Origin: Bdellovibrionales bacterium
GTDB lineage: Bacteria > Bdellovibrionota > Bdellovibrionia > Bdellovibrionales > UBA1609
Assembly: GCA_965247685.1 (NCBI GenBank)
Contig: OZ252021.1
Span: forward strand, 1,201-65,200
Reading direction: 5' to 3'
Length of the DNA stretch: 64,000 nucleotides
The notes under the pieces are model-generated. The model worked only from the letters and a program-made list of their open reading frames with translations. It had not been told where the DNA came from and did no database searches. Positions 1,374 to 58,847 of the stretch are shown here, piece after piece (position 1 is the stretch's first letter; the number at the start of each line of letters is the position of its first letter). The position numbers were made by a program, and so were the translations under genes.

Positions 1374-2807
1374 ATGAGTGAGAAGAAAAATAAAAGACAA
1401 CTTTTAATAGATAAAGGTCTTAATCCTTATCCTATTAATTTCAAAAAAAATACTACAACTCAGCAAATTGCTCAGTCAAAATTAAAAATAGATCAAAAAG
1501 GAACTCTGGCCGGCCGCCTGATGCGTATTCGTCAAATGGGAAAAGCTTCTTTTTTTAATATTCAAGATGAATCAGGCCAATGTCAATGCTATGTCAAATC
1601 TCAAGACCTTTCTAAAGAAGATCAAATCTTTTTTGATCTCGTAGACATTGGAGATTTTATCGGTGTCACTGGAAAATTTTTCACTACAAAAAAAGGAGAG
1701 CCCACTTTAAGAGTGAATCAATTTAAAATTTTATGTAAAACAACAGAGCTTCTTCCTGAAAAATATCACGGTTTAGAAAATAAAGAACTTCGTTATCGTC
1801 ATCGCCATCTAGATCTGATTATGAATAAAAAAAGTCGTGACACTTTACTGACTCGCTCTCGAGTGATTCGATTTATTCGGGAATACATGAACAATCGTGG
1901 TTTTATTGAAGTGGAAACACCTGTTCTTCAACCGATTTACGGTGGAGCAGCAGCCCAACCTTTTTCAACGATCCATAACACACTCAACGTTCCATTTTAT
2001 TTAAAAATTTCTCCTGAACTTTATCTTAAAAGATTAATCGCAGGAGGATTCGAGAAGGTCTATGAAATTGGAAAAAATTTCAGAAACGAGGGAATGGATC
2101 GATTACACAATCCTGAGTTTACCATGATGGAGTATTACGAAGCTTACACAGACTATGAAGATCAAATGAAAGAATTTGAAAAACTGATACTTCATGTCGT
2201 TCAAACTATTAAAGGTAGTTCACAAATATCTTATCAAGGAAAAACTCTCGACTTTTCTACACCTTGGAGGCAGATAAGTATACAAGAGGGTATTAAGGAG
2301 CATGTAGGGATAGATATTTATTCTTCTTCTCAAAAAGAAATTATTCAAAAACTTAAAGAACTCAATATAGAGTACAATCCTCAATCCGGCTTTGGTGAAC
2401 TCATCATGACTTTATTTGAAGAATCTGTAGAAAAACATATCTGGAATCCCTGCTTTATTAAGGATTTCCCTCGTGATATCTCCCCTTTAACTAAAGACCA
2501 TCGAAATATAAAAGGTTTTGTGGAACGTTTTGAACCTTATGCTGCAGGAATGGAATTAGGAAATGCCTATTCGGAGCTGAATGATCCCATCGACCAACAT
2601 CAACGGCTCAAAGAACAAACTCGTGTCACAGAAGAAAATACACACCCTATGGATCATGACTTCCTTCATGCGGTCGGCGTTGGTATGCCTCCTATGGGCG
2701 GTGTAGGACTGGGAATTGATCGGCTCATTATGCTTCTCACTGATCAAAGCAGTATTCGTGAAGTTATTTGGTTTCCGACAGTCAAAAGCTCAGAAAATAA
2801 AGAGTGA
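1374..2807 (+). CDS. lysS: Lysyl-tRNA synthetase, class II
   Basis: Has an OB-fold N-terminus, ELRYRHRHLDLIMN, class II motifs (FRNEG..., GVGLGIDRLIML) and a length of 477 aa. The start lies 1 nt after the fbaB stop. Confidence 0.95.
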   Translation: MSEKKNKRQLLIDKGLNPYPINFKKNTTTQQIAQSKLKIDQKGTLAGRLMRIRQMGKASFFNIQDESGQCQCYVKSQDLSKEDQIFFDLVDIGDFIGVTGKFFTTKKGEPTLRVNQFKILCKTTELLPEKYHGLENKELRYRHRHLDLIMNKKSRDTLLTRSRVIRFIREYMNNRGFIEVETPVLQPIYGGAAAQPFSTIHNTLNVPFYLKISPELYLKRLIAGGFEKVYEIGKNFRNEGMDRLHNPEFTMMEYYEAYTDYEDQMKEFEKLILHVVQTIKGSSQISYQGKTLDFSTPWRQISIQEGIKEHVGIDIYSSSQKEIIQKLKELNIEYNPQSGFGELIMTLFEESVEKHIWNPCFIKDFPRDISPLTKDHRNIKGFVERFEPYAAGMELGNAYSELNDPIDQHQRLKEQTRVTEENTHPMDHDFLHAVGVGMPPMGGVGLGIDRLIMLLTDQSSIREVIWFPTVKSSENKE

Positions 2808-2810
2808 TTA

Positions 2811-4868
2811 ATGAGATCTGAAGAATTTCTTGAAACATCTTTGCAATTTGTTAAAGGTGTAGGACCTCACCTTGCAGAACGGTTGTTTAAAAAAAATCTC
2901 CACAAAATAGAAGACCTACTTCACTTTTACCCTCGTGCTTATCATCATGTTCAAGCTGTTCAAAATGTTCAAGAATTGCATGAGGGTCAGCATGCTATTT
3001 TAAAAGGAGAAATTTTTAGAAAAAACATTATTCAAAGATCTAAAAGATCGTCCTTATATGTTGTTATGCTCAGAACGCATGACCAAGATTTCGTAACTTT
3101 AAAATACTTTAAGCTTCCTTATAAAGGATTTTTCGACTCCATCGAAATAGGTCAGAATGTTCAAGTTTATGGAGAAGTTTTTTCTTATAACGGAAAAATG
3201 GAATTTCATCATCCTGAGTTTTTACCTATAGATTACAAAATGGAGACTGGAGTGATTCCCGTTTACTCTGAAATAGAGGGAGTCAGCAATCAAAAACATT
3301 CTAAAATACTCCATACTATTTTTCAGATGATAGAAAGTAATGACCACAATGTGAATTTTTTACCAGAATGGATGTTGGAAAAATTTAATCTTATGAATAC
3401 TTTTGAAAGTTTAAAAGATATTCATAACCCCTCTCAAGCTGAACCTGATCTTTATTTAAAACACCAAGCCCCTTGTCAAAAGACACTCATTTTTGAAGAG
3501 CTTTTTAAATTACAGCTTCATTTATGTCTGAAGAAAAAAAGAATTAAAAATCGATCATCTTATCCTATTCACTCCGAAGGACGACTTTCTAAACAACTGA
3601 TTCAATCTTTGCCCTTCTCTCTCACTCATGCCCAACAAAGGGTTTTTCAAGAAATCACAGATCAGATCAAACACCCCCACCCGATGTATCGATTAATTCA
3701 AGGTGATGTAGGTTGTGGAAAAACACTCATTGCATTTCTTTCTTCATGTCAAGTGATTGAAAGTGGGTATCAATGTGCTTTTATGGTACCTACAGAAATT
3801 CTAGCAGAACAACATTTTAAACAAGCACGATTGAGATTAAAGGATTTATCTATTCAACTTCTCACCTCTAAAGTGAAAAATAAAAAAACTATTTTAAAAT
3901 CTATTGAAACTGGAGAGTGTCAGCTTTGTATTGGAACTCACGCTCTTTTACAAGAGTCGGTAAAGTTTAAAAATTTAGGATTAGTGATCATTGATGAGCA
4001 ACATCGATTTGGAGTGTATCAAAGGCACTCTTTAGCAGAAAAAGGCAACACTCCTCATTGCTTAGTTATGACAGCCACTCCGATTCCACGAACTTTATCA
4101 ATGACTCTTTATGGAGATTTAGATATTTCCATTGTGAATGAAATGCCTCCAGGGCGTCAGCCTATCGTCACAAAAAAAACGAGAAAGAGAAAAGAAGTCT
4201 TTGAGTTTTTAGAAAAAGAAGTTTCTAAAGGCCGTCAAGCTTATGTTGTTTATCCTTTAATCGAAGAAAGTGAAAAAATGGATTTAAAAAATGCAACAGA
4301 GCAGTTTGAAAAATTGAAAAACAGTTTTCCTCATATTCGCTGGGCTTTACTGCATGGTCAGATGAAGACTGAGGAAAAATCTCAAGTAATGAAAGATTTT
4401 ATTTCGAATAAAATTCAAGTGCTTGTGACCACCACAGTGATTGAGGTCGGGGTCGATGTTCCGAATGCTACTTTGATGATTGTAGAGCATAGTGAAAGGT
4501 TTGGTCTTTCTCAACTTCATCAACTCAGAGGACGGATAGGAAGAGGATCGGAAAAAAGTTATTGTGTTTTGATTTTAGGAGATAGAGTTTCTAAAGAATC
4601 TTATATGAGAGCAGTCGTAATGGAGAAATACTTGGATGGCTTTCAAATTGCAGAGGAGGATTTAAAATTGAGAGGAGCGGGTGAAATATTTGGAACAAAG
4701 CAGTCCGGAGATTTGAATTTTAAAATTGCAAACTTTATCCGTGATGTGGAAATTCTTCAACAGGCAAGAAAGGTCGCCACTGATCTGTTGGAAAGTGATC
4801 CTTTATTGGAGAAAAATCCAATATTGAAAAAAGAAATGGAAAAAGTATCTAAAATTCGATTGATTTGA
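2811..4868 (+). CDS. recG: ATP-dependent DNA helicase RecG
   Basis: Carries helicase motifs GDVGCGKT, DEQHRFGV, TATPIPRT and QLHQLRGRIGRG, and is 685 aa long. The start lies 3 nt after the lysS stop. Confidence 0.95.
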   Translation: MRSEEFLETSLQFVKGVGPHLAERLFKKNLHKIEDLLHFYPRAYHHVQAVQNVQELHEGQHAILKGEIFRKNIIQRSKRSSLYVVMLRTHDQDFVTLKYFKLPYKGFFDSIEIGQNVQVYGEVFSYNGKMEFHHPEFLPIDYKMETGVIPVYSEIEGVSNQKHSKILHTIFQMIESNDHNVNFLPEWMLEKFNLMNTFESLKDIHNPSQAEPDLYLKHQAPCQKTLIFEELFKLQLHLCLKKKRIKNRSSYPIHSEGRLSKQLIQSLPFSLTHAQQRVFQEITDQIKHPHPMYRLIQGDVGCGKTLIAFLSSCQVIESGYQCAFMVPTEILAEQHFKQARLRLKDLSIQLLTSKVKNKKTILKSIETGECQLCIGTHALLQESVKFKNLGLVIIDEQHRFGVYQRHSLAEKGNTPHCLVMTATPIPRTLSMTLYGDLDISIVNEMPPGRQPIVTKKTRKRKEVFEFLEKEVSKGRQAYVVYPLIEESEKMDLKNATEQFEKLKNSFPHIRWALLHGQMKTEEKSQVMKDFISNKIQVLVTTTVIEVGVDVPNATLMIVEHSERFGLSQLHQLRGRIGRGSEKSYCVLILGDRVSKESYMRAVVMEKYLDGFQIAEEDLKLRGAGEIFGTKQSGDLNFKIANFIRDVEILQQARKVATDLLESDPLLEKNPILKKEMEKVSKIRLI

Positions 4869-5069
4869 ATTCAAAATAAAACAATTAAACTAATCTCGAA
4901 TTATTCTAAAAATTGATTTGAATTCTGATTGATTCAGTAATCTCAATGATTAGACTCAGATATTTTGTAATTGTGGAAAAAGTTCTGTGACAGGAGTGAT
5001 ATTTACTTGAAATCCCATAAAAAGGAAAAAATCATTTCTCAATTTATTTTATTATAATGATCTATTTAA

Positions 5070-6137
5070 TTAAAAGAGATTATCGATTCTGTCTTCGTCG
5101 TGTAAATCATCACAACGATCATTCTTCGTTCTGCCTACAATGTCATCATAATTTTCTAAGTCATCAAAAATACCATCGGCAAAACTCCACATATCGCCTC
5201 CAAAAACATCATACTGGCAGTAAGTAGCCTGTAAACATTGTTTCACTTCAACCTCATCTTCATTTTCATCAGTCATATTTTTACAAAGCTCCACAAGAAT
5301 ACTATGTCCGTATTGAATAGCTTGATCATTTTCTTCGTCAATGGCATAGCTCATAAAGCGATCAGTACCAAAGTTTTCTGGTTCTGCTTCCATAAATTGA
5401 TACCAAGCTTGACCCCACAATTCGTCTGAACCTAAGTCTAAATCTCTAAGAAAAACACCCTGCTCACTATTTTTTACTTCTACACTAATGCCCCTATTAA
5501 CAACATCTGTAAGTTTTAAGCAAGTAGCATCATTGCTACAAAACTTATCTCTTTCAAATGCTGCAACATTTGCTAGAGTTGCACCAATACTATTAAAAAG
5601 TTCTATACCAAAATCAAGCATATCTTCACTTTCCACAAACACTTCCGAGACATCTTCATTTTCAGCAATCCATTGAAGTATCACTTCTGAGTTATCTTTT
5701 CTAGCTGCCCTAGTATCCCCCCATGCTTCATCGTTATAACCCACTCCTTCTCCTTCCGCAATCTTCACTAAAGTGGCTGAGCCTATCTCGACATAAGATC
5801 TCAAATCATCGGAATCAATATCTTCTAAATCATTTAAATCGATATCATCATCTAAAAGAACATCTGCCACTTTAGCAAGAGTGCTCACTTCTCTGTAGCT
5901 CATGTCATAACATTGAAATCTTTCGGATGTGGAGTCAAAAATGTCGTCACAAATATCTTCACAACTATCACGGCTCGCACAAGATCGAACGACGGGTTCA
6001 TCATCGTCGTCGTCACCACCATCGACTACTGATGGAAGCGGAACACTCGGGAAATTACAAGAGATGACCAAAAAAGCAGAGCATAATGAAAAAACAAAAA
6101 CAGAAAACACTATTTTCAAGATATATCGTATGTTCAT
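5070..6137 (-). CDS. Acidic Cys-motif lipoprotein, family member 1 (uncharacterised)
   Basis: Signal peptide with a lipobox-like LVISC, a DDDDDE run, then CASRDSCEDICDDIFDSTSERFQCY. It is homologous over its full length to the proteins at 43032..44018 and 44038..45051. Confidence 0.8.
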   Translation of the reverse strand: MNIRYILKIVFSVFVFSLCSAFLVISCNFPSVPLPSVVDGGDDDDDEPVVRSCASRDSCEDICDDIFDSTSERFQCYDMSYREVSTLAKVADVLLDDDIDLNDLEDIDSDDLRSYVEIGSATLVKIAEGEGVGYNDEAWGDTRAARKDNSEVILQWIAENEDVSEVFVESEDMLDFGIELFNSIGATLANVAAFERDKFCSNDATCLKLTDVVNRGISVEVKNSEQGVFLRDLDLGSDELWGQAWYQFMEAEPENFGTDRFMSYAIDEENDQAIQYGHSILVELCKNMTDENEDEVEVKQCLQATYCQYDVFGGDMWSFADGIFDDLENYDDIVGRTKNDRCDDLHDEDRIDNLF

Positions 6138-49739: not shown

Positions 49740-52700
49740 CTACTGTTGCCTTTTGGTTTCGAAAGCTCTTTGGGCTTCACACCTTGTGTCTCCGTCATTA
49801 GGCGCACATGTTGTACACGTTCCGTTTACTGCCTTTTGATTCCAAGGACATTGACAAGTAGTTCTATTCAGTCTTCTTAGTCTTCCTCCTCTACAATTAT
49901 CTGCGCATTGCGCATGACCACTAGGATACGCTATGCTCTGGTTTGAAGGACATTCACACCTATTCCCGATCCTTTCTTGTCCTCCAGCACATCTAGCTAC
50001 ACAGTTACCATCGATCCTTTCTTGTCCTCCAGTACATCTAGCTACACACCTGTTATTCACTACTATCTGCCCTGAACCACATCTGCAAGTATAAGTACAA
50101 TTCCTGTTTTCAGCTTTCCATGTATCACATTCTTGTTGAAGAGTAGGACTAGCGTAAGGGCACTGAGCCTCTATGTTTGTACTTCTATAACGAACTCCAC
50201 ATACAGAATTGCTTGGTTCATTGCCAATCCGTCTACAGTTGACCCAACAAAACTGTGTATTTCTGGATGTACAAGAACCACAATTAAAGTCTGGATAATC
50301 ATCGTCGGGCTTTCTGCCGAAGATATTAGTACCAGGACATATGGTGCATTGTGATGGCTCTGTAGGAAGACCATCAAATATAAGACTTCCACCAGGAGTA
50401 ATAGTGCCTGGTGTTCGAACAATAGAGGTAGTCACTTCACAATTACTCGAATTACTAATGAAGTTCGTATAATTAACACTGGTACCAGGTACTTCGTCGT
50501 CATCACAAAGATCGTCGTCTCCAATATCTGGCAGATCAACAAAGACATTCTCTCTTAACGAATAAAGACTCGTAGAAATGAAAGAAGCTTTTTCATCCCA
50601 ATCCCATCGAGCATCATTTTCGGTTCTAGTCACTCCAATCTCACCTGTGACATGTAGATTTCCATTTCTGTATTTATACACTAGACTTGCTTTAGGATTG
50701 AGCTGCCCTATACTCCAACAGCGACTGTCTGAGGCACTATCAAAGCTGTACTGATATTTATCTGCTCCTGAGTCTACCGCCTGTCCACTGATAGGATCAT
50801 ACTCTTGGTTAAGTCTAATTGCGTTAACTGCATTAATACATTCTTGTTTAACAGTAGCCGCACCTTTGTTAATTAAAGTTTGAAGTGCAATTTTACGATC
50901 ATTTAAGTTTACTGCATCTTGAGACGCTCGTCTGACACTATCTGTGTGAGTAGAACAATGTTTATTTTCAAAAGCATCATGGGCTTTTAATTCGTTCACC
51001 TTATTAATAAACAGGTTTCTATTGGCTATTGCATCGTTAGTTTTTGTGAGAAGTTGTTGATAGTAATTAAAAGCTCCGCCACAAAGCTCCATATTCTTAT
51101 GGCAAATATTTCTATTTTTTCGAACCGCTTGAGTGATTTTTTTAGAATGTTTTATACCATTCAATATCAAAGCATTGCTATCAGTGGTGCTATTATAAGC
51201 TTTAACAATACACTGTCCTTTTGCACGACGCAGTTTTTCAGCTTTCCAAAGATCACAAAACTTACCTTCATTTTGTACATGATAAGATCCAGAATTATAA
51301 AACTTGAGTATGACATCAATGGAACGCATACCTTTTGCAAAACTACCCAAGTTGTATTCAGTCAACGTTTCTAAACTAGAAGTGTCCGCTTCTCCAACAT
51401 CAAAAGCGATATTATCTTTAAGTTTGTTCAACGTTTCACCACCATCCGTTTTAGAAGCAGAGCAACTGCTAGGCCAATCTTGTTCAGTTCCTCGAAGAAT
51501 TAAACTTTGATGAGTCCACAAATCTGTATTTTCTACGTTAGAAACACAAATTTTAGTCAATTTTTCATGAATGCTGTTATCACTTTTAAAAAGCGCTCTC
51601 ATCTCTTCAGCATCCATTATATGGCCAGCCTTATCTATAACACCGGATGCCGTTCCACCCGTTAAGAAAAGAGCACTAGAACTCACAGCATTCATTTGTT
51701 GATATCTGGATTGATGATTAGCCGCAAAGTTGAAAATAGAATCTGTGGCTCTCATATTTGTACCAAAAATACCCTGCCAATCTGGCACCCAATTCCAACT
51801 TTGATGATATTGCCTAGATGATGTATCGGGATTAGGCTTCAAACCAATCCATGCCGAAGCAGGAGTCTCAAGCAAACTGCCGTCAATTATAATGTGATAA
51901 TCTGAGTTTTGAGATATTGTAAAGTCAGATTGAGACGTATCTGCAAATTTGAAACTCAATTGATTTCTGGAATTATGGAATGGAACACCATCTACAAACT
52001 TAAAAGGGTTGGGGAACGAATATCGAGGCGCATTCGGAGCTACAGTTTGAAGAGCTGCCGCCCAAAGTTCTCTTGAATCTGGAGGAATGAAAAACCAATT
52101 AGATCCTAAGTTTCTACACGCTTGATGTCCAGGAGTCAGACTGGTTCCTTTAGTTTGAGATAACTTAAAAATATCTTTGATTTTGGTTGCACCCACTTTA
52201 CGGCAAAGGTAAGGAAAAGATCGAGATGTACTCGAACCAACTCCTCGAAGCCCTCTATATTGCAGATGATGAGTCAGTAAAAGAGCTTGCATGTTCGCAC
52301 TAGCCCCAGCAGTACTAATACCACTAGTTTCATCATTATTGTTGCCACCGGCATTGCGATCGGCATGAAAGTTCGAATCCGTTTTAATATAAATAGGACG
52401 AGCTGGTCTCATGCGGGATTGTATATCTCTTATTGTAACACCTGAAGGAAGTGATGCTGTAGACAAGTCAGTATATTTAATCCCTTCAAAAGGCTCTCTA
52501 TAGAAGAACGCCCAATCTCCACCTTTCATCATAGACGGCCAACCTTCGTGAAACATTCCAGAAGCATCCCTTTGAATATTCACCCAAACATGATTTTCAC
52601 TGGAAGACTCATCAAAAGAATCACCAAAGTTAGTCGCCATGTTCACACTATTTTTAAACTTGATCACTTCCACATTATTTTCCGTCTCAACAGTCAACCC

Positions 52701-54707
52701 TGCATCTTCAAGAGTTTTTCTTACAGAAGCATCCGTTGCATCAATGCTTTCTGGAGGCAGATTGTAAGCAATAGCTAAACTCGGCAACAACCCGTTTGTC
52801 CATACACCTTCCTGAGAAGGAGATCCTAATTTTTGAACTTCCGATAAAGGAGCTAAACAATTCAGTTGAGCATCCAAGCCAGAAGCTCCACCCGTTACAA
52901 TTTTAGATTTTCCATTCACAAAGCAAAGTGTTTTTTTACTTCCTGCTGTATATTCAAAATCTACACTCCTGTAGTCCGTTCCAACATCACTATTACCACA
53001 AAGAACAGGCTTAAATTCTGTAGGAGACATTCTCTTAACACATCTTCTGCTCTGGTAAATATAATAGCTACCAACCAAGGTAAAACTGTTTGTATTTTGC
53101 TCATAATCTTTATGTATAACACACTCTGGAACACTTCCATCTAAAGGTTCATCTGGAAGAGTCGCCACCTTACCAAAAGTTCCCACACCATAACGATGGC
53201 AGTTCTTCATATGACAAACTGTACATTGCATCTTCACATTATAAGGAGAGCTTCCAAAATTAATATTTTTAGAGCACTTTTTAGATCCTTTACTTGTAAT
53301 ATCATTGTATTCGACACTAATGGATGGAGAATAATAATTAGGCTGTTCACAAATGTTCTTGCATATATTTTGACTGCCATTTTTCACAGAAACATAAGAA
53401 GTCACCTCTGTTCCACCTGCTTGCAAATGCCAAAAATTGTGGTTTTTATCAAAAGTTTTTAGTCCTATTCTATCTCTTCCCACACGGCTACTCCCACTCC
53501 CATCACCATGCAAAGCTGCAACAGTCCAAGGGCCGATTCTAAAATCTAAACTATCGATATTGGTCGATTTCAAAAAGGTGTCAAGGTAAAGACCGTAAGT
53601 CATTCGAATAGAAGAATCAAAAAATTCATCATCATCAAATCGCTTCGAATCATTGGCACAACGGAAAACATTTAAGGAACAGCTCGCCGCCACATTTTGA
53701 ATTGTGTCACTTCCAAGAACCACATTCTTAGGATTTCCTGTGTTTTCTATTTGGCCTGCTTGCAAAATATTCTTACTCACATAATCCACAGATAAAGCAC
53801 TACAAATACCCGGCCCTTTAATATTTGAATGATAACAAATCTTTCCTTCCGAAGTTGAAGAACCTAAAGAACTCGTCGATAAACGAGCCAGCATATAATT
53901 TTGCGTAGATAAACTGCAGGCTCCAGGTCCACCATCACAAATATGACACTCTAAAACTTCTGAAGATAAAACAAGTTTTTCACTTTTAGAAACTGCGTAA
54001 GTGCTTTCTTGGCTGGAATCAGTTGTAATCTTGTTAGGCATAGAAATAACAGACTTCAGTTTATAAACCAAAAAACCCACTGGCACAGTGTCTGAGTTAG
54101 CTTGTTCGATTTCAGTAAAGGCAGGCATCTGTGTTGGAATCATTGTTAAACGAGCATATATATATCCCCCCGCTGATCGAGAAGCCTTCAAACATTTATT
54201 AAAATGATTTTCAGTAAAATCTCCAAAAAATCCATTCGAACCATTGGCACAATCACCTGAGCTTATCTGCCATTCTTTATTGCCAATGACTTTTAAAAAA
54301 TAGTTCCATCTTGTATCAGTAAAACCTAAAGAACTTCCGTCCAGAATTTTGCTTTTCTTTATCTCTATAGGGCAGGTAAACTCACCTTTAATATCATTAT
54401 AATTCAGTGCTGTTCCGACTAGACCGCATATTCCATACTTTTTAAAATCTTGAACCGTTCCCACACTTGAACTATCCACTTCCACTTGTATACCAATGAG
54501 CATCGATCTCATAGTCTCAAGCAGAGATTTGTGCTTGAACAAAACGTCGGATTGTTCACTATATTGAACTTGTGCCTGCTCAAAGTTACCCATATAGGTG
54601 GCAAGACCCACTGTAGATAAACCGAGTAAGGAAAATCCAAGAAGCGATCCCAATAAAGAAAAACCCTTATTCTTACTCAACATCTTAATTATTTTAGATC
54701 TAACCAT
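49740..54707 (-). CDS. Giant (1655 aa) secreted protein with a prepilin/PilX-like N-terminus and a Cys-rich repeat C-terminus; family unknown
   Basis: AGGAAG ribosome-binding site 6 nt upstream of ATG 54707. The N-terminus is MVRSKIIKMLSKNKG/FSLLGSLLGFSLLGLSTVGLATYM. The last 260 aa or so hold about 27 Cys in CxC / CxxC spacing (CRCGSGQ..., CVARCTGGQERI x2, CECPSNQ, CQCPWNQ, CTTCAPN). Confidence 0.85.
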   Translation of the reverse strand: MVRSKIIKMLSKNKGFSLLGSLLGFSLLGLSTVGLATYMGNFEQAQVQYSEQSDVLFKHKSLLETMRSMLIGIQVEVDSSSVGTVQDFKKYGICGLVGTALNYNDIKGEFTCPIEIKKSKILDGSSLGFTDTRWNYFLKVIGNKEWQISSGDCANGSNGFFGDFTENHFNKCLKASRSAGGYIYARLTMIPTQMPAFTEIEQANSDTVPVGFLVYKLKSVISMPNKITTDSSQESTYAVSKSEKLVLSSEVLECHICDGGPGACSLSTQNYMLARLSTSSLGSSTSEGKICYHSNIKGPGICSALSVDYVSKNILQAGQIENTGNPKNVVLGSDTIQNVAASCSLNVFRCANDSKRFDDDEFFDSSIRMTYGLYLDTFLKSTNIDSLDFRIGPWTVAALHGDGSGSSRVGRDRIGLKTFDKNHNFWHLQAGGTEVTSYVSVKNGSQNICKNICEQPNYYSPSISVEYNDITSKGSKKCSKNINFGSSPYNVKMQCTVCHMKNCHRYGVGTFGKVATLPDEPLDGSVPECVIHKDYEQNTNSFTLVGSYYIYQSRRCVKRMSPTEFKPVLCGNSDVGTDYRSVDFEYTAGSKKTLCFVNGKSKIVTGGASGLDAQLNCLAPLSEVQKLGSPSQEGVWTNGLLPSLAIAYNLPPESIDATDASVRKTLEDAGLTVETENNVEVIKFKNSVNMATNFGDSFDESSSENHVWVNIQRDASGMFHEGWPSMMKGGDWAFFYREPFEGIKYTDLSTASLPSGVTIRDIQSRMRPARPIYIKTDSNFHADRNAGGNNNDETSGISTAGASANMQALLLTHHLQYRGLRGVGSSTSRSFPYLCRKVGATKIKDIFKLSQTKGTSLTPGHQACRNLGSNWFFIPPDSRELWAAALQTVAPNAPRYSFPNPFKFVDGVPFHNSRNQLSFKFADTSQSDFTISQNSDYHIIIDGSLLETPASAWIGLKPNPDTSSRQYHQSWNWVPDWQGIFGTNMRATDSIFNFAANHQSRYQQMNAVSSSALFLTGGTASGVIDKAGHIMDAEEMRALFKSDNSIHEKLTKICVSNVENTDLWTHQSLILRGTEQDWPSSCSASKTDGGETLNKLKDNIAFDVGEADTSSLETLTEYNLGSFAKGMRSIDVILKFYNSGSYHVQNEGKFCDLWKAEKLRRAKGQCIVKAYNSTTDSNALILNGIKHSKKITQAVRKNRNICHKNMELCGGAFNYYQQLLTKTNDAIANRNLFINKVNELKAHDAFENKHCSTHTDSVRRASQDAVNLNDRKIALQTLINKGAATVKQECINAVNAIRLNQEYDPISGQAVDSGADKYQYSFDSASDSRCWSIGQLNPKASLVYKYRNGNLHVTGEIGVTRTENDARWDWDEKASFISTSLYSLRENVFVDLPDIGDDDLCDDDEVPGTSVNYTNFISNSSNCEVTTSIVRTPGTITPGGSLIFDGLPTEPSQCTICPGTNIFGRKPDDDYPDFNCGSCTSRNTQFCWVNCRRIGNEPSNSVCGVRYRSTNIEAQCPYASPTLQQECDTWKAENRNCTYTCRCGSGQIVVNNRCVARCTGGQERIDGNCVARCAGGQERIGNRCECPSNQSIAYPSGHAQCADNCRGGRLRRLNRTTCQCPWNQKAVNGTCTTCAPNDGDTRCEAQRAFETKRQQ
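49968..50057. repeat. 45-bp tandem duplication inside the giant gene (encodes CVARC(T/A)GGQERI...)
   Basis: 49968-50003 and 50013-50048 (GATCCTTTCTTGTCCTCCAG(C/T)ACATCTAGCTACACA) differ at one base. The period is 45 bp, so the duplication is in frame (15 aa). Confidence 0.9.
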
Positions 54708-54722
54708 TGCATCTTCCTATTT

Positions 54723-56840
54723 TTAATGTGGTGGTACAACCACAGTAGTGGTGACAGTTTTAATTGTTTGAGAAAGCACATTCGTTTGACTCTCTATAGT
54801 CACTGGCTGCATTCTATCTTCCAATCTCAGTGGATCGATCCCAGCGTATTCACAATAGGTATCAAAACCTACATATCGAACAGCCTCACCTATTCTTGGA
54901 CCATTTTCTGCAGATGTAATATCCACATATTTTCCATTTTTCAAAGCTTTACAAAAGCATCTATTCTTCTTATCCAAATTACACTTCTTGTTGATAGGAG
55001 GACAGTAAGCTGAATATTGTCTCATGCGGACTTCTTTATTATTGACCTTCTTATGAGCAATACATACATAGTCTGGTCTATCTGCTCTTCCGATCGTGTA
55101 AACAGATTGGATGGAATCCGATCCATGCACATTAAATGTTCTTGGAAAAGCAAGATCCACCACTGGAGGATCACCCACTATTCCCGTATCGCAAGTCCCG
55201 TCTTGTTCTATAGCAGAACCATCCGGACAGCACGCACCACCTACAGGCATAGCATTTCCATCAGGACAACACACTCCAGAAGGCGCAGAACCATCTGTAC
55301 ATGTGACTGCAACCGAACAAATTCCACTTGCGGGTTTAGGTGAGTTGTTTGGACATTTGCATATATTTGTATTGCTGGAATTAGCCTGTGTTTGAGCAAA
55401 CTTGTAAGAACCATTATTACATGCACACATTCCTGAACCATCTTTTGTGGAACCTGTAGGACATTGAGGACAGGAAAATGTGGAATCGGAAACATGAGCC
55501 TGCTTCGTTGGTTCATATTTACATATACATTGATCCACATTAAGTTCTGCATCTGAAGGACACGGAGAACAGTTGATTGAGGAATCTCCAAAAGCTGCAA
55601 CTATGCTTGGGTTATCAATACATTGACATCCTTCAGCGCCTTTATTCCTCGTTCCAGACACAGGACATCCTTTACAACTTAAACTCTTTAACGCAGTCAC
55701 ACTCGTGATAGAAGCAGACGGACGGTTTTGAACACTGGGGTCTGTAGAATTTTCTCTATGAAAAACACAGGCACATTGACTAGAATTGATAGGCGCCACA
55801 TTGAAGAGCACTCGCCAATTTGCATGATCTCTTGTTACAAATCGTTCGTGATTGTCCATCCACCAATTAACATTAGAAGAGTTTGCAGATTCTTTTAAAG
55901 ATGCAGCAACAAAGCTTCTAAGACCATTGTCATCCAAACTCACATCACGATCAGGATAAGGAGTACAGCAACTTTGTCCCTTTAGATTTCCTGCCTGTTT
56001 GCCAGGAAAAGCATCGCAAAGACAACTACGTTCATTGCTATCATAACTGGATCCAAAAGGACACTGAGTACAAGATAAGGAACTTCCTAACGGAGCTTGT
56101 CTGGTTGGATCATTATCACACCTACATACAACAGAACTATCTGGATTTGTATGTCGAGTTGTCTCCGGAGAGCATGCTGTTGTACTACAATTATTAGGTA
56201 AATTCCCTCCTATTGGGAAAGTGATACTCGGATCACTCGTACAACCACAGAATAAATTTTCAATTTGCTCTAGTTGCTGTTGTGAGAATTGGTATGGATT
56301 ACCCCCAAAATTACCACTTTCAGCATCTGTTCGGAGTTCACTTCCTGCTGGACATCTACTACGACAAACCGAAGGCAAAGGTTGATTTGTTGGGAATGTA
56401 ACAGTATTTCTCAAAACACACCTGCAAACTGGCTCAATGTCTGCTCCTTCGAATACAATACTTCCTGCTGGACAAGTTCTTGTAGCAGGATCTGTAGCAG
56501 GATCGAGAGTGGGATCGAGAGTGGGATCGGGACAATTCTGAGGTATATTTTCTGCTCCGTAGAAACCTACATCACCCGGACATAAACATATTTCCTGCCA
56601 TGCATTAACACTTGGACTATTACCAAAACCACTAGTCGTGGCGCGATAGAAGTTTCCTCCCGCACACTTGCCCTGTAGATGCTGATGAGCACCAGCATTA
56701 GAATCAGTATGAGCACTTGTATAAAAACTGCCGAAACAGATTACAGCCAAAATAAACCAATATTTTTTTGTACAAAAAGGTGCAAAAAAATATTTATTAA
56801 AAGTTTTCATCCAATTTATGTTATCCATATTTTCGTTCAT
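54723..56840 (-). CDS. 705-aa secreted cysteine-rich repeat protein; family unknown
   Basis: Signal-like segment WFILAVICFGSFYTSA/HT. By hand count there are 50 Cys after it, including 11 CxC pairs and 6 C-x2/4-CP pairs in a periodic module of about 33-40 aa (CP.GS...CxC...C..). The start lies 2 nt after the upstream stop. Confidence 0.85.
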   Translation of the reverse strand: MNENMDNINWMKTFNKYFFAPFCTKKYWFILAVICFGSFYTSAHTDSNAGAHQHLQGKCAGGNFYRATTSGFGNSPSVNAWQEICLCPGDVGFYGAENIPQNCPDPTLDPTLDPATDPATRTCPAGSIVFEGADIEPVCRCVLRNTVTFPTNQPLPSVCRSRCPAGSELRTDAESGNFGGNPYQFSQQQLEQIENLFCGCTSDPSITFPIGGNLPNNCSTTACSPETTRHTNPDSSVVCRCDNDPTRQAPLGSSLSCTQCPFGSSYDSNERSCLCDAFPGKQAGNLKGQSCCTPYPDRDVSLDDNGLRSFVAASLKESANSSNVNWWMDNHERFVTRDHANWRVLFNVAPINSSQCACVFHRENSTDPSVQNRPSASITSVTALKSLSCKGCPVSGTRNKGAEGCQCIDNPSIVAAFGDSSINCSPCPSDAELNVDQCICKYEPTKQAHVSDSTFSCPQCPTGSTKDGSGMCACNNGSYKFAQTQANSSNTNICKCPNNSPKPASGICSVAVTCTDGSAPSGVCCPDGNAMPVGGACCPDGSAIEQDGTCDTGIVGDPPVVDLAFPRTFNVHGSDSIQSVYTIGRADRPDYVCIAHKKVNNKEVRMRQYSAYCPPINKKCNLDKKNRCFCKALKNGKYVDITSAENGPRIGEAVRYVGFDTYCEYAGIDPLRLEDRMQPVTIESQTNVLSQTIKTVTTTVVVPPH
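56481..56528. repeat. Two adjacent 12-bp tandem doublets (TGTAGCAGGATC x2, GAGAGTGGGATC x2)
   Basis: Read directly. On the coding (minus) strand this encodes DPTLDPTLDPATDPAT (residues 105-120 of the 705-aa protein). Confidence 0.9.
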
Positions 56841-56842
56841 AC

Positions 56843-58558
56843 TTACCTACTTAATGGAAGAGTGGCTAAACTCCCAGCTCCAAAAACGTTAGAGAGAAAT
56901 CGCGGCGGAGTCGATCCTCCTCCCGGAAGAGGTCTTGTAGATGTCATACAACCTCCAAGAGAAATGGCACTTCCACTGCAACCCGGCCAATTGTTTCGTT
57001 GACACAAAGCTTGCACTGCAGTCAGCTGAGAATTTGCTAAAGCAGGGAGAGTTGCTGGTGCCGGACAAGAAAAAGGCTGCACCGACGTCCCACTGGCTCT
57101 CGCCACAACATGAGGCCCTTGAATCACACCATCACATGTTAATGTTCCACGACATACAGAACCATCTGGGCCCGTAACATCTGTTCCCAGAGTACCTATT
57201 CTTCTCTGCCTGCAAGTACAATTCATCCGCTTCACGTTCACTTCGTAATAGCTTGAATAATAACAAGGTATTAAATCTTGAATAACACGAGAACCTCCAG
57301 GACCAACAGGTCTAGGAGAACTTCCACTTGCAAACTCTCTCGCCCTTACAATATGTTGACCCAAACTAGATTTCGTATCCCTATCAAGATCTTCTCTTTT
57401 AAGAGCAATGTCAAAAAGCACTCCCGGTCCTTTATTTAATACTTTGAGTTCTTTTCGCAAAAGTTGAGTTCCCTTAGGATAATTGCCAAGAACCGCCGCA
57501 TTTTGTATCGTATTGTAGTCACTAAGACCCACACAACGAGGATATTCATTGTCGTAATGTTCGTTATAAGCCGACTCACACTTCATAGCACAAGATTCAG
57601 ACGCTATAGGTCTGATATGAAAGGTGGAAAAAGGACGGCGAACCGCCGCATTCATTACAATCTTCTGCTTCTTCACATCCTTAGATACTTGGTAAGGAAC
57701 CACCACGCTCACGAAGACCATGGAATCATCACTATCTTGCACAGGATAATAATCACAAACAGTATGAGCTCCATCTACTGTATATTGACCATTAGAATCT
57801 TTAATTTTACAAAGAACAGAAGGCATCCCCATATAACCAGCATAGTTAAGTCTCATATCCAAAGGATAATCATCATCTTCTTTTGTGGGAGGGGCGTAAG
57901 GACAAAGTCCGTCTACTTCTAATAGAGTTCTAGTGTCCCGGCAAATCACACCTTTATCCGCAATGGAAAGAGCAGCACGAACACTTGGATCATTCGCATT
58001 ACGAACAGCCCAAGTAATTTCTGCATTTTTAAAAAGTGTATGGTAATCATTTTTAAGGTCGGTATCGAGAGGATTAAAAACTAAATATGCTTTGCCTTCC
58101 ATTTGATTGTTGTAAGGGGAAGGTAAATTGACAGTTTTAAACCAAGAAGGCTTACCTGAAGGAGGTTGCCCTAATAACCCTAAACTATCATAGAAATCAT
58201 GGGCAATTTTATTGACCACTCCATTTGGATTAGAATTTCCGTCCAAATCTTCTCGAGGCAAAGGACCTATTTGATAGCATCCGCGGACCTGCTTTTTCCA
58301 TCCATCATTTTCATTTCCTATTTGAGCATTAGAGCAAATGACCACATTTTTTTGTACCATTAAAGTCGCTAAAGCAATCGATTTTTGGGCTAAGATAAAA
58401 GCCTGTTGTTGATTCAGCCCTTGTGCTGCACCACTGGCAAAGTTTTGAGCCACTTGATGAGTCGCCATAATGGTCGCAGCCACAACACCTGAAGCCATTA
58501 AAGAAAGGACTAAACTTCCTTTTTTTCCAAGCATTTTTTTTGTTCTTTTAAATATCAA
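56843..58558 (-). CDS. 571-aa secreted Cys-containing protein with a prepilin/PilX-like N-terminus; family unknown
   Basis: N-terminus (MIFKRTKK)MLGKKG/SLVLSLMASGVVAATIMATHQVAQNF. The first 70 aa or so are homologous to the N-terminus of the giant protein. The start is either TTG 58558 or ATG 58534. Confidence 0.8.
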   Translation of the reverse strand: MIFKRTKKMLGKKGSLVLSLMASGVVAATIMATHQVAQNFASGAAQGLNQQQAFILAQKSIALATLMVQKNVVICSNAQIGNENDGWKKQVRGCYQIGPLPREDLDGNSNPNGVVNKIAHDFYDSLGLLGQPPSGKPSWFKTVNLPSPYNNQMEGKAYLVFNPLDTDLKNDYHTLFKNAEITWAVRNANDPSVRAALSIADKGVICRDTRTLLEVDGLCPYAPPTKEDDDYPLDMRLNYAGYMGMPSVLCKIKDSNGQYTVDGAHTVCDYYPVQDSDDSMVFVSVVVPYQVSKDVKKQKIVMNAAVRRPFSTFHIRPIASESCAMKCESAYNEHYDNEYPRCVGLSDYNTIQNAAVLGNYPKGTQLLRKELKVLNKGPGVLFDIALKREDLDRDTKSSLGQHIVRAREFASGSSPRPVGPGGSRVIQDLIPCYYSSYYEVNVKRMNCTCRQRRIGTLGTDVTGPDGSVCRGTLTCDGVIQGPHVVARASGTSVQPFSCPAPATLPALANSQLTAVQALCQRNNWPGCSGSAISLGGCMTSTRPLPGGGSTPPRFLSNVFGAGSLATLPLSR

Positions 58559-58731
58559 AATTTTCTGCCCTGCTTTTGTTTTCTCTTTTAGTTATTTTTT
58601 ATCGAAAAATTATCTTTATAAATTTACAAACAAAATTATTAATTTAAATTTCATAAACAACCAGTAAAAAAACAAAGCAGCAATCTATATTTGAAGACAC
58701 GGAGATCTGCACAGCAATACTTTGTCCCACC

Positions 58732-58771
58732 ATTCTCCTGTAAGAGTTTTTGTATGTCAAATTGAGTGCCA
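58732..58771 (-). promoter_or_regulatory. Candidate promoter for the three-gene operon (sigma-54-like -24/-12 overlapping a sigma-70-like -35/-10)
   Basis: The minus strand reads AAAAAATGGCACTCAATTTGACATACAAAAACTCTTACAGGAGAATGG. One reading is TGGCAC-N5-TTGA (sigma-54 consensus TGGCAC-N5-TTGC). The other is TTGACA-17 nt-GAGAAT. It lies about 175-210 nt upstream of the start codon. Confidence 0.25.
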
Positions 58772-58847
58772 TTTTTTAAACTGAGGTGTGTCACATCAAT
58801 ACAATAGACTGGGATTCTTAAAAAAGTGTATCAATTCAATACAAAAT

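Follow-up and report, generated by a model that had tools for sequence, protein, structure and literature searches.

Does a protein of 1655 residues begin with the export signal of a type IV pilin, and does a smaller protein from the same operon do likewise? This question is raised by a 64,000-nucleotide stretch of contig OZ252021.1 from a Bdellovibrionales bacterium (assembly GCA_965247685.1), hereafter the window, which is contained in a single 1.28-Mb contig of 34.8% G+C; the named relatives of this genome are metagenome-assembled genomes labeled 'Bdellovibrionales bacterium'. Three closely packed genes on the (-) strand of the window, called here A, B and C, are separated by gaps of 2 nt (A-B) and 15 nt (B-C). 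A and C, the first and third genes, open with a leader that ends in glycine and leads into a long hydrophobic helix, and neither has the glutamate of canonical pilins at position +5 of the predicted mature protein (Glu5). The analysis indicates that A and C are probably type IV pilin-like proteins with class III (prepilin) signals, that they belong to a tip module of the Bdellovibrio phylum whose large subunit, C, has lost Glu5 and grown in this lineage, and that they would be cut by prepilin peptidase (PilD), bundled and displayed at a filament tip. Membership by descent in the pilin-like family is well supported by sequence comparison. From the observed sequence pattern, conservation, homology, synteny and presence of peptidases and filament machines, we infer the cleavage, bundling, tip location and adhesin role of A and C.

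The operon and its parts have the following positions in the window.

Gene A: 56843..58558, (-) strand; 571 aa from TTG, or 563 aa from the ATG of M9; pilin-like protein of the cap type without Glu5.
Gene B: 54723..56840, (-) strand; 705 aa; cysteine-rich non-pilin protein with an ordinary Sec-type signal peptide.
Gene C: 49740..54707, (-) strand; 1655 aa; giant and pilin-like, its C-terminal tail rich in Cys.
Leader of A: 58517..58558, (-) strand; residues 1-14, MIFKRTKKMLGKKG, or 6 residues from M9; prepilin peptidase is predicted to cut behind G14.
Hydrophobic N-terminal helix of mature A: 58439..58516, (-) strand; SLVLSLMASGVVAATIMATHQVAQNF; Ser at +5.
Leader of C: 54663..54707, (-) strand; residues 1-15, MVRSKIIKMLSKNKG; prepilin peptidase is predicted to cut behind G15.
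Hydrophobic N-terminal helix of mature C: 54588..54662, (-) strand; FSLLGSLLGFSLLGLSTVGLATYMG; Gly at +5 instead of Glu.
Shine-Dalgarno-like AGGAAG: 54713..54718, (-) strand; 5 nt upstream of the M1 ATG of C, as read from the sequence.
Non-coding stretch of 289 bp: 58559..58847, (-) strand; upstream of gene A and presumed to carry the operon promoter.

Translation of window positions 54573-54707 (-) yields MVRSKIIKMLSKNKGFSLLGSLLGFSLLGLSTVGLATYMGNFEQA as the start of C, and translation of 58439-58558 (-) yields (TTG)IFKRTKKMLGKKGSLVLSLMASGVVAATIMATHQVAQNF as the start of A, in exact agreement with the coordinates and sequences given for both N-termini in the initial annotation. The two are alike in kind, each consisting of a basic stretch up to K-G followed by approximately 25 uncharged, mostly hydrophobic residues. 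Class III leaders range in length from 6 to 26 residues, end in Gly at position -1 and precede about 21 mainly hydrophobic residues (PMC4471445). The leaders of C (15 residues, or 7 from M9) and A (14, or 6 from M9) fall within this range, and the hydrophobic tract of each, at ~25 residues, extends over the expected length. Glu5, the remaining hallmark in that work, is missing from both proteins. Position +5 is Gly in C, as originally reported, whereas the Leu originally assigned to A is in fact Ser (S-L-V-L-S). The Gly at -1, hereafter Gly(-1), is critical for prepilin processing, for which Glu5 is dispensable (PMC4471445), and tip complexes are capped by one subunit without Glu5 (PMC10191384, PMC7541494, PMC5207764).

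An in-frame Met does occupy codon 9 in both genes, and the proposal that it starts translation, leaving short leaders, fares differently for the two proteins. For C, the 15-residue leader appears more likely than the 7-residue one, because AGGAAG precedes the M1 ATG and no comparable site precedes M9. For A, the M9 start is plausible, and a public protein collection carries this 563-aa form.

The pattern of conservation among close homologues (11 for A and 17 for C) provides the first line of evidence. The A-B-C operon recurs in three further small genomes (loci L003, L004 and L005), and pairwise identities were computed among the four divergent operons. Leaders are only 0.07-0.08 identical in A and C (0.07 in C), while the hydrophobic segment that follows reaches 0.95 in C and 0.62-0.77 in A, compared with 0.26 for the rest of each protein. 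The Sec-type signal peptide of B serves as an internal control in the same four operons, with an identity of 0.15-0.28. Since this removable signal drifts while the corresponding segments of A and C are the best conserved, it is argued that the latter stay in the mature proteins. A Sec (class I) signal would have a short, poorly conserved core, whereas the ~25-residue core of A and C is their best conserved part.

Alignments of the close A homologues (A1), the C homologues (A2) and the wider A family (A3) direct attention to the residues around the predicted cut. Gly(-1) does not vary in A1, and its conservation is at least 90% in A2 and also in A3, where mean column identity is 15%. The A leader varies among homologues in both length and sequence, and its end is always [K/R/S]-G; in the A and C families the residue before the Gly is almost always K or R. 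G15, F16 and S17 of C are each at least 90% conserved, and Glu5 was never seen in the close relatives of either protein. Automated gene calls frequently place the start of these genes at a Met inside the helix (L003 15019; proteins P0023, P0002 and P0036), thereby removing the leader and the Gly, so that the prepilin motif is hidden in public records; the real start of the L003 giant is MFMKIKINKRG↓FSM (the arrow here and below marks the predicted cut).

Distant relatives of C provide the second and, with those of A, decisive line of evidence. These homologues measure 940-1090 aa and were confirmed by hmmsearch with E values from 3e-48 to 4e-17 at Z = 1e6. Outside the window's clade, 11 homologues of C were verified, and in eight of them a canonical prepilin motif with Glu5 opens the protein (G↓LSFVE, G↓FTLAE, G↓FSMLE, G↓QSIVE, G↓MSFVE, G↓FSVIE, G↓FSVVE and G↓FSIIE). 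Cultured bacteria are included: Bdellovibrio sp. HCB117, HCB-110 and B. bacteriovorus encode a C homologue of 953-955 aa that begins with G↓FSVIE and is named 'hypothetical' or 'type II secretion system protein' by NCBI, and the C protein of the window aligns colinearly with that of HCB117 in BLASTP (2e-18 and 3e-9). In most loci the third gene encodes a genuine pilin (G↓FTLVE; N_methyl 33.6 bits, TIGR02532 31.3 bits), and in the same cultured strains this gene bears the NCBI name 'type II secretion system protein J / GspJ family'. The three orthologous genes of cultured Bdellovibrio encode 431, 953 and 331 aa. Known models recognize the C homologues themselves only weakly, through matches to PilV, GFxxxE and ComGE.

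In a maximum-likelihood tree, all 16 C proteins from reduced genomes, together with L007, form one clade in which none has Glu5, whereas five of the seven proteins in the other clade keep it; the loss of Glu5 in the window's C lineage is thus secondary, as judged from these sequences. Within the reduced-genome clade, position +5 of C is Gly, Ser or Ala, and C measures 1355-1684 aa. The window's clade departs from its relatives in three ways: C lacks Glu5, the third pilin gene is gone, and the Sec-exported, Cys-rich B has been inserted. A search of the window genome for the third pilin gene of the relatives gave no clear homologue.

The family of A is broad, with a profile search collecting 81 representative clusters, and the superfamily is present in 26 of the 401 genomes that were sampled from the phylum (15 of 204 genera). 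Complete N-termini read ...[N/S][K/Q][K/R]G↓S(A/L)(A/V)(L/I)... and continue into a hydrophobic helix, with position +1 mostly Ser. An acidic residue at +5 is absent from all 73 of the 87 members in which the motif was located, a result limited by the motif-finding rule, which itself demanded that the first 18 positions be free of charged residues. Pfam contains no family that covers the 61 members scanned. An A-like gene lies directly upstream of the C homologue in every locus examined.

Taken together, these loci define a three-gene module. The first gene encodes a pilin-like protein of 400-600 aa without an acidic +5, which follows the cap logic of GspK and PilX without belonging to them by sequence; the second encodes a pilin-like protein of 940-1680 aa that carries the canonical G↓FSxxE in most genomes; and the third is usually a GspJ-type minor pilin. 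The ancestral module fits the rule of a single Glu5-less cap, with the A-like protein lacking Glu5 and the large protein and GspJ-type pilin having it. This arrangement holds in most relatives and fails in the window. Three proposals of the initial annotation, namely a class III signal with Gly(-1) and no Glu5, a GspK/PilX-like logic and the giant as an extreme modular pilin, are supported by this comparison: C homologues carry G↓FSxxE, the motif-bearing members of the A family lack an acidic +5, their genes stand upstream of C homologues with a pilin gene as the usual third partner, and the genome encodes two prepilin peptidases.

Comparison with the pilins of the same genome leads in the same direction for C. 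All nine canonical pilins read (K/R)G↓(F/L)(S/T)(L/V)(I/L/V)E, and C reads KG↓FSLLG, which is the pilin motif with its Glu replaced. Alignment of the C family profile with the N-termini of eight of the genome's own pilins by hhalign was in register from -6 to +17 (P = 7e-6, 84% probability). A hidden Markov model (HMM) of the C N-terminus placed six of the nine genome pilins at ranks 7-15 of 3464 open reading frames (ORFs; hypergeometric 1e-13). Among 24,736 Pfam families, N_methyl (PF07963) is the only one touched by the N-terminus of C, and in the correct register. As a control, homologues of C with a canonical G↓FSVIE likewise remain below the N_methyl cut-off. A relaxed pattern for class III signals without Glu5 was also applied; it calls for [KR]G and then a stretch of 20 residues, hydrophobic on average and uncharged near its beginning except at +5. 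Of the 1129 long ORFs in the genome it matches 24, including A and C; about 20 of the 24 are pilins, Tad-like proteins or a positional GspK.

The resemblance between A and C themselves is another matter, as the initial annotation had proposed that their first 70 or so residues are homologous. The first 80 aa of the two proteins yielded no BLASTP alignment at E ≤ 100. The HMM of the A-family N-terminus placed C 346th among the 3464 ORFs of the genome, and A was not among the 2010 matches of the C-family HMM in the same set. The two N-terminal profiles aligned by hhalign with a probability of 0.7%, through a 7-residue match that is out of register, and the common 'KML.K' falls in the leader section that varies freely among homologues. 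Because BLASTP, reciprocal HMM searches and hhalign were all negative, a shared origin of the two N-termini was abandoned; they are not detectably homologous, and the proposal is not supported by these comparisons. Relatedness of the whole proteins was likewise considered and rejected, BLASTP having returned only chance-level matches between Cys-rich regions. No paralogue of A was found in the genome, and C has a single other weak match there (E 4.4e-4).

If A and C work as prepilins, one of the two prepilin peptidases would cut after G14 of A and G15 of C at the cytoplasmic face. The conserved hydrophobic helices, kept in the mature proteins, would remain in the inner membrane and bundle together; the bundle might then seed and cap a filament made by one of the genome's four type IV filament machines; and the disulfide-rich C, perhaps together with B, would be displayed at the tip as an adhesin.

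Several results weigh against this interpretation. The operon adjoins no pilus machinery genes in its genome and contains no canonical pilin partner, and it has two Glu5-less subunits where one per set is usual (PMC5207764). C scores 11.1-14.6 bits on N_methyl against a cut-off of 21.2, A has no N_methyl or TIGR02532 match, and neither protein reaches the cut-off of any curated pilin model. With an HMM of the genome's own pilins, in which Glu5 is weighted heavily, C ranks 146th and A is unlisted, and hhalign of the A N-terminus with pilins is limited to the 'KKG' of the leader. The Ser at +1 of A is also unusual. AlphaFold2 models of whole A and of residues 1-620 of C have a mean predicted local distance difference test (pLDDT) score of 53.7 and 60.4, respectively, with values below 50 in the N-terminal helices, and Foldseek searches of the Protein Data Bank (PDB) with A and C 1-620 returned no pilin fold, only weak beta-sandwich noise.

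Further searches and the models themselves complete this picture. Whole proteins A, B and C have no Pfam or NCBIfam match above cut-off. When the N-terminal pieces are included, C shows only sub-threshold N_methyl and ComGE matches and A shows nothing. The comparison with PilX_N and GspK models recommended in the initial annotation produced no match, N_methyl being below its cut-off; the T2SSK and PilX_N models matched neither A nor any of 61 A-family members, and TadE (PF07811) and Tad (PF13400) matched neither A, C nor the 61 members scanned. Profile searches of PDB sequences found nothing meaningful. The low-confidence AlphaFold2 models depict C with one continuous helix (residues 27-70) followed by beta structure, and A with helices at 12-31 and 39-61 followed by beta strands, shapes that are compatible with a pilin 'stick' and are no proof of one. 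In the pilin fold, a helix of about 50 residues at the N-terminus packs with its C-terminal half on a beta-sheet.

The genome is equipped with the machinery that such subunits would use. It encodes two Peptidase_A24 (prepilin peptidase) genes, seven T2SSE-family ATPases, four secretins and the nine canonical pilins. A PilD-like gene is a 288-aa ORF around 1109926 of the 1.28-Mb contig (G000:C1); for PilA and Flp1 of B. bacteriovorus, co-expression with PilD in E. coli is reported (bioRxiv 10.64898/2026.07.08.737194). A type II secretion-like cluster at 1204-1216 kb contains pseudopilins and a positional GspK of 404 aa (KKRG↓MVLMI), which also lacks Glu5, is not recognized by Pfam and owes its label to cluster position only. 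Further filament systems comprise type IVa pilus genes and two Tad-like sets (secretin/ATPase pairs).

Three rivals of this interpretation were weighed. The main rival is a filament-independent, membrane-anchored A-C complex, in which the two N-termini would be pilin relics that no longer work as prepilin signals, and A and C bitopic inner-membrane proteins, uncleaved or else cleaved and never assembled, whose conserved transmembrane helices would pair in the membrane and hold large periplasmic domains with no filament. Such an outcome is considered unlikely, yet it accommodates the loss of Glu5 from both subunits, the absence of the canonical third pilin gene from the clade and the distance of the operon from all pilus gene clusters; Glu5 mutants are unable to homopolymerise (PMC4471445), and the Gly found every 4 to 5 residues in the C helix suits helix-helix packing. 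A plain membrane anchor, however, needs neither Gly(-1) nor a basic residue at -2, and both are invariant clade-wide; F1-S2 of GFSxxE is retained as well, and a Cys-rich protein of 1655 aa is better suited to be a surface adhesin than a periplasmic protein. It is highly improbable that the N-termini are ordinary Sec (class I) signals whose likeness to prepilins is coincidental and that signal peptidase I cleaves them at, for instance, the end of GLA in C or of SGAA in A. A basic n-region and a hydrophobic core are common to both signal classes, small-residue sites occur downstream and pilin HMMs stay below threshold, but in A and C no part is better conserved than the ~25-residue hydrophobic region, while the real Sec signal of B is not conserved; homologues have the canonical G↓FSxxE with pilin genes behind them, and the alignment of C with the pilins of its own genome is in register.

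A separate alternative concerns the machine only and leaves the pilin-like nature of A and C untouched. The module might be a tip set of a Tad (Flp) pilus, comparable to KilL/KilM/KilN, and not of a type IVa pilus or type II pseudopilus. Scattered, disulfide-rich tip modules of three genes have been described for predators, and a Bdellovibrio tip has been predicted (PMC12075869); two Tad-like secretin/ATPase pairs and TadG-like paralogues are present in the genome, and in HCB-110 a protein read as TadG-like by its N-terminus is encoded 1.3 kb away from one copy of the module. Against this, TadE and Tad models find nothing in A, C or the 61 A-family members, the third gene is of the GspJ/N_methyl type (G↓FTLxE), and C homologues weakly match only PilV, GFxxxE and ComGE; use of a Tad machine is doubtful. 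The interpretation preferred here remains that of pilin-like subunits with class III signals, in a lineage where the large subunit lost Glu5. Its most far-reaching form, in which an uncharacterised tip module of the Bdellovibrio phylum has a large subunit that, at up to 1684 aa, would rank among the largest pilin-like proteins seen and a reduced-genome lineage breaks the one-cap rule by having both subunits without Glu5, is put forward tentatively and with the odds against it. If it is true, the apex could consist of two subunits, or A and C could be displayed in a PilD-dependent, filament-independent manner, for attachment to host or prey.

Other genes of these genomes deserve mention. The gene set for type IV filaments is large for a genome of 1.28 Mb, with genes of Flp/TadE-like type around 183 kb and 934 kb. 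Beyond the window, an identical N-terminus links three paralogues of ~800 aa (G000:C1:766921-769314 (-), 939206-941617 (+) and 1193182-1195566 (-)), which begin RSKG↓LLSIFGILFILGSLTIFGMVMGVGLMVHHK; one of them has a weak Tad/TadG match (PF13400, 14.7 bits, below cut-off), and the three may be alternative tip proteins of the TadG type. A pilin-like protein of 521 aa with Asp at +5 (NKKG↓FTLMDALAS) is encoded at G000:C1:990992-992554 (+), likewise beyond the window, adjoining four canonical pilin genes at 983-989 kb. In HCB-110 (L019), the neighbor of one of the two module copies is a 726-aa protein at 2212-4392 (-), TadG-like by its N-terminus alone (KSKSG↓QVTIFVALIF...VDLAAYYG), which hints at use of the module by a Tad machine.

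Gene B is confined to the reduced-genome clade, which lacks the GspJ-type third pilin, and is absent from distant operons. Its counterparts range from 705 to 1036 aa, with 72-79 Cys in L003 and L004, and keep the motif CEYA..(D/E)P(L/F)R near the C-terminus. In L004, a MoxR-type AAA ATPase, a DUF58/VWA gene and a 297-aa gene without a Pfam match (2655-5389) lie directly upstream of A-B-C on the same strand.

The significance of this module lies in the role of minor-pilin tip complexes, which determine what a type IV filament binds and are candidates for prey and host recognition in predatory and host-associated bacteria. The module now defined joins three parts, of which a Glu5-less cap-type subunit comes first, a giant pilin-like protein second and a GspJ-type pilin third; among its carriers are cultured Bdellovibrio strains, which allow deletion and imaging, and no curated protein model recognizes its first two genes. 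N_methyl-type models overlook pilins that are large or lack Glu5, and such subunits are therefore under-counted in genome annotation. The window's lineage also constitutes a natural experiment, with a large subunit that lacks Glu5 and has nearly doubled in size, and it bears on the role of Glu5 in assembly.

Several described systems share features with the module. GspK of type II secretion and PilX/PilK of type IVa pili resemble A in their leader, which is of class III-like type with Gly at its end, and in the lack of an acidic +5; A is likewise larger than ordinary minor pilins and in relatives is encoded with a GspJ-type pilin. In contrast, A matches neither T2SSK nor PilX_N, has no fold match and bears Ser at +1; it is the first gene of its set and not the last, and in the window C also lacks Glu5. 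Modular pilins such as PilB and PilC of Streptococcus sanguinis, CofB of enterotoxigenic Escherichia coli (ETEC) and ComZ of Thermus resemble C in joining a pilin-type helix to a large payload expected at the tip (PMC8179133). C is much larger, with 1655 aa (940-1090 aa in relatives) against the 860 residues of the most extreme multi-domain example in that survey (PMC8179133); its payload matches no known domain, and it lacks Glu5 in this clade.

The large tip adhesin PilY1/PilC of type IVa pili works with a minor-pilin complex topped by a Glu5-less subunit (PMC7541494). PilY1 is, however, a non-pilin protein exported by a Sec signal, while C itself has a pilin-type N-terminus; B, also exported by Sec, would come closer to PilY1, although it has no PilY1 domain. 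In organization, the closest described analogue is the tip set of Kil/Tad pili. KilL, KilM and KilN of the Myxococcus Kil pilus (TadE/F/G-like) are likewise three pilin-like genes located apart from the machinery, one of which encodes a very large extremity subunit (PMC12075869). Many predicted disulfides and an occurrence in predatory bacteria are shared with the module, whereas A and C have no TadE or TadG signature. A counterpart of that set has also been predicted from structure for Bdellovibrio (PMC12075869).

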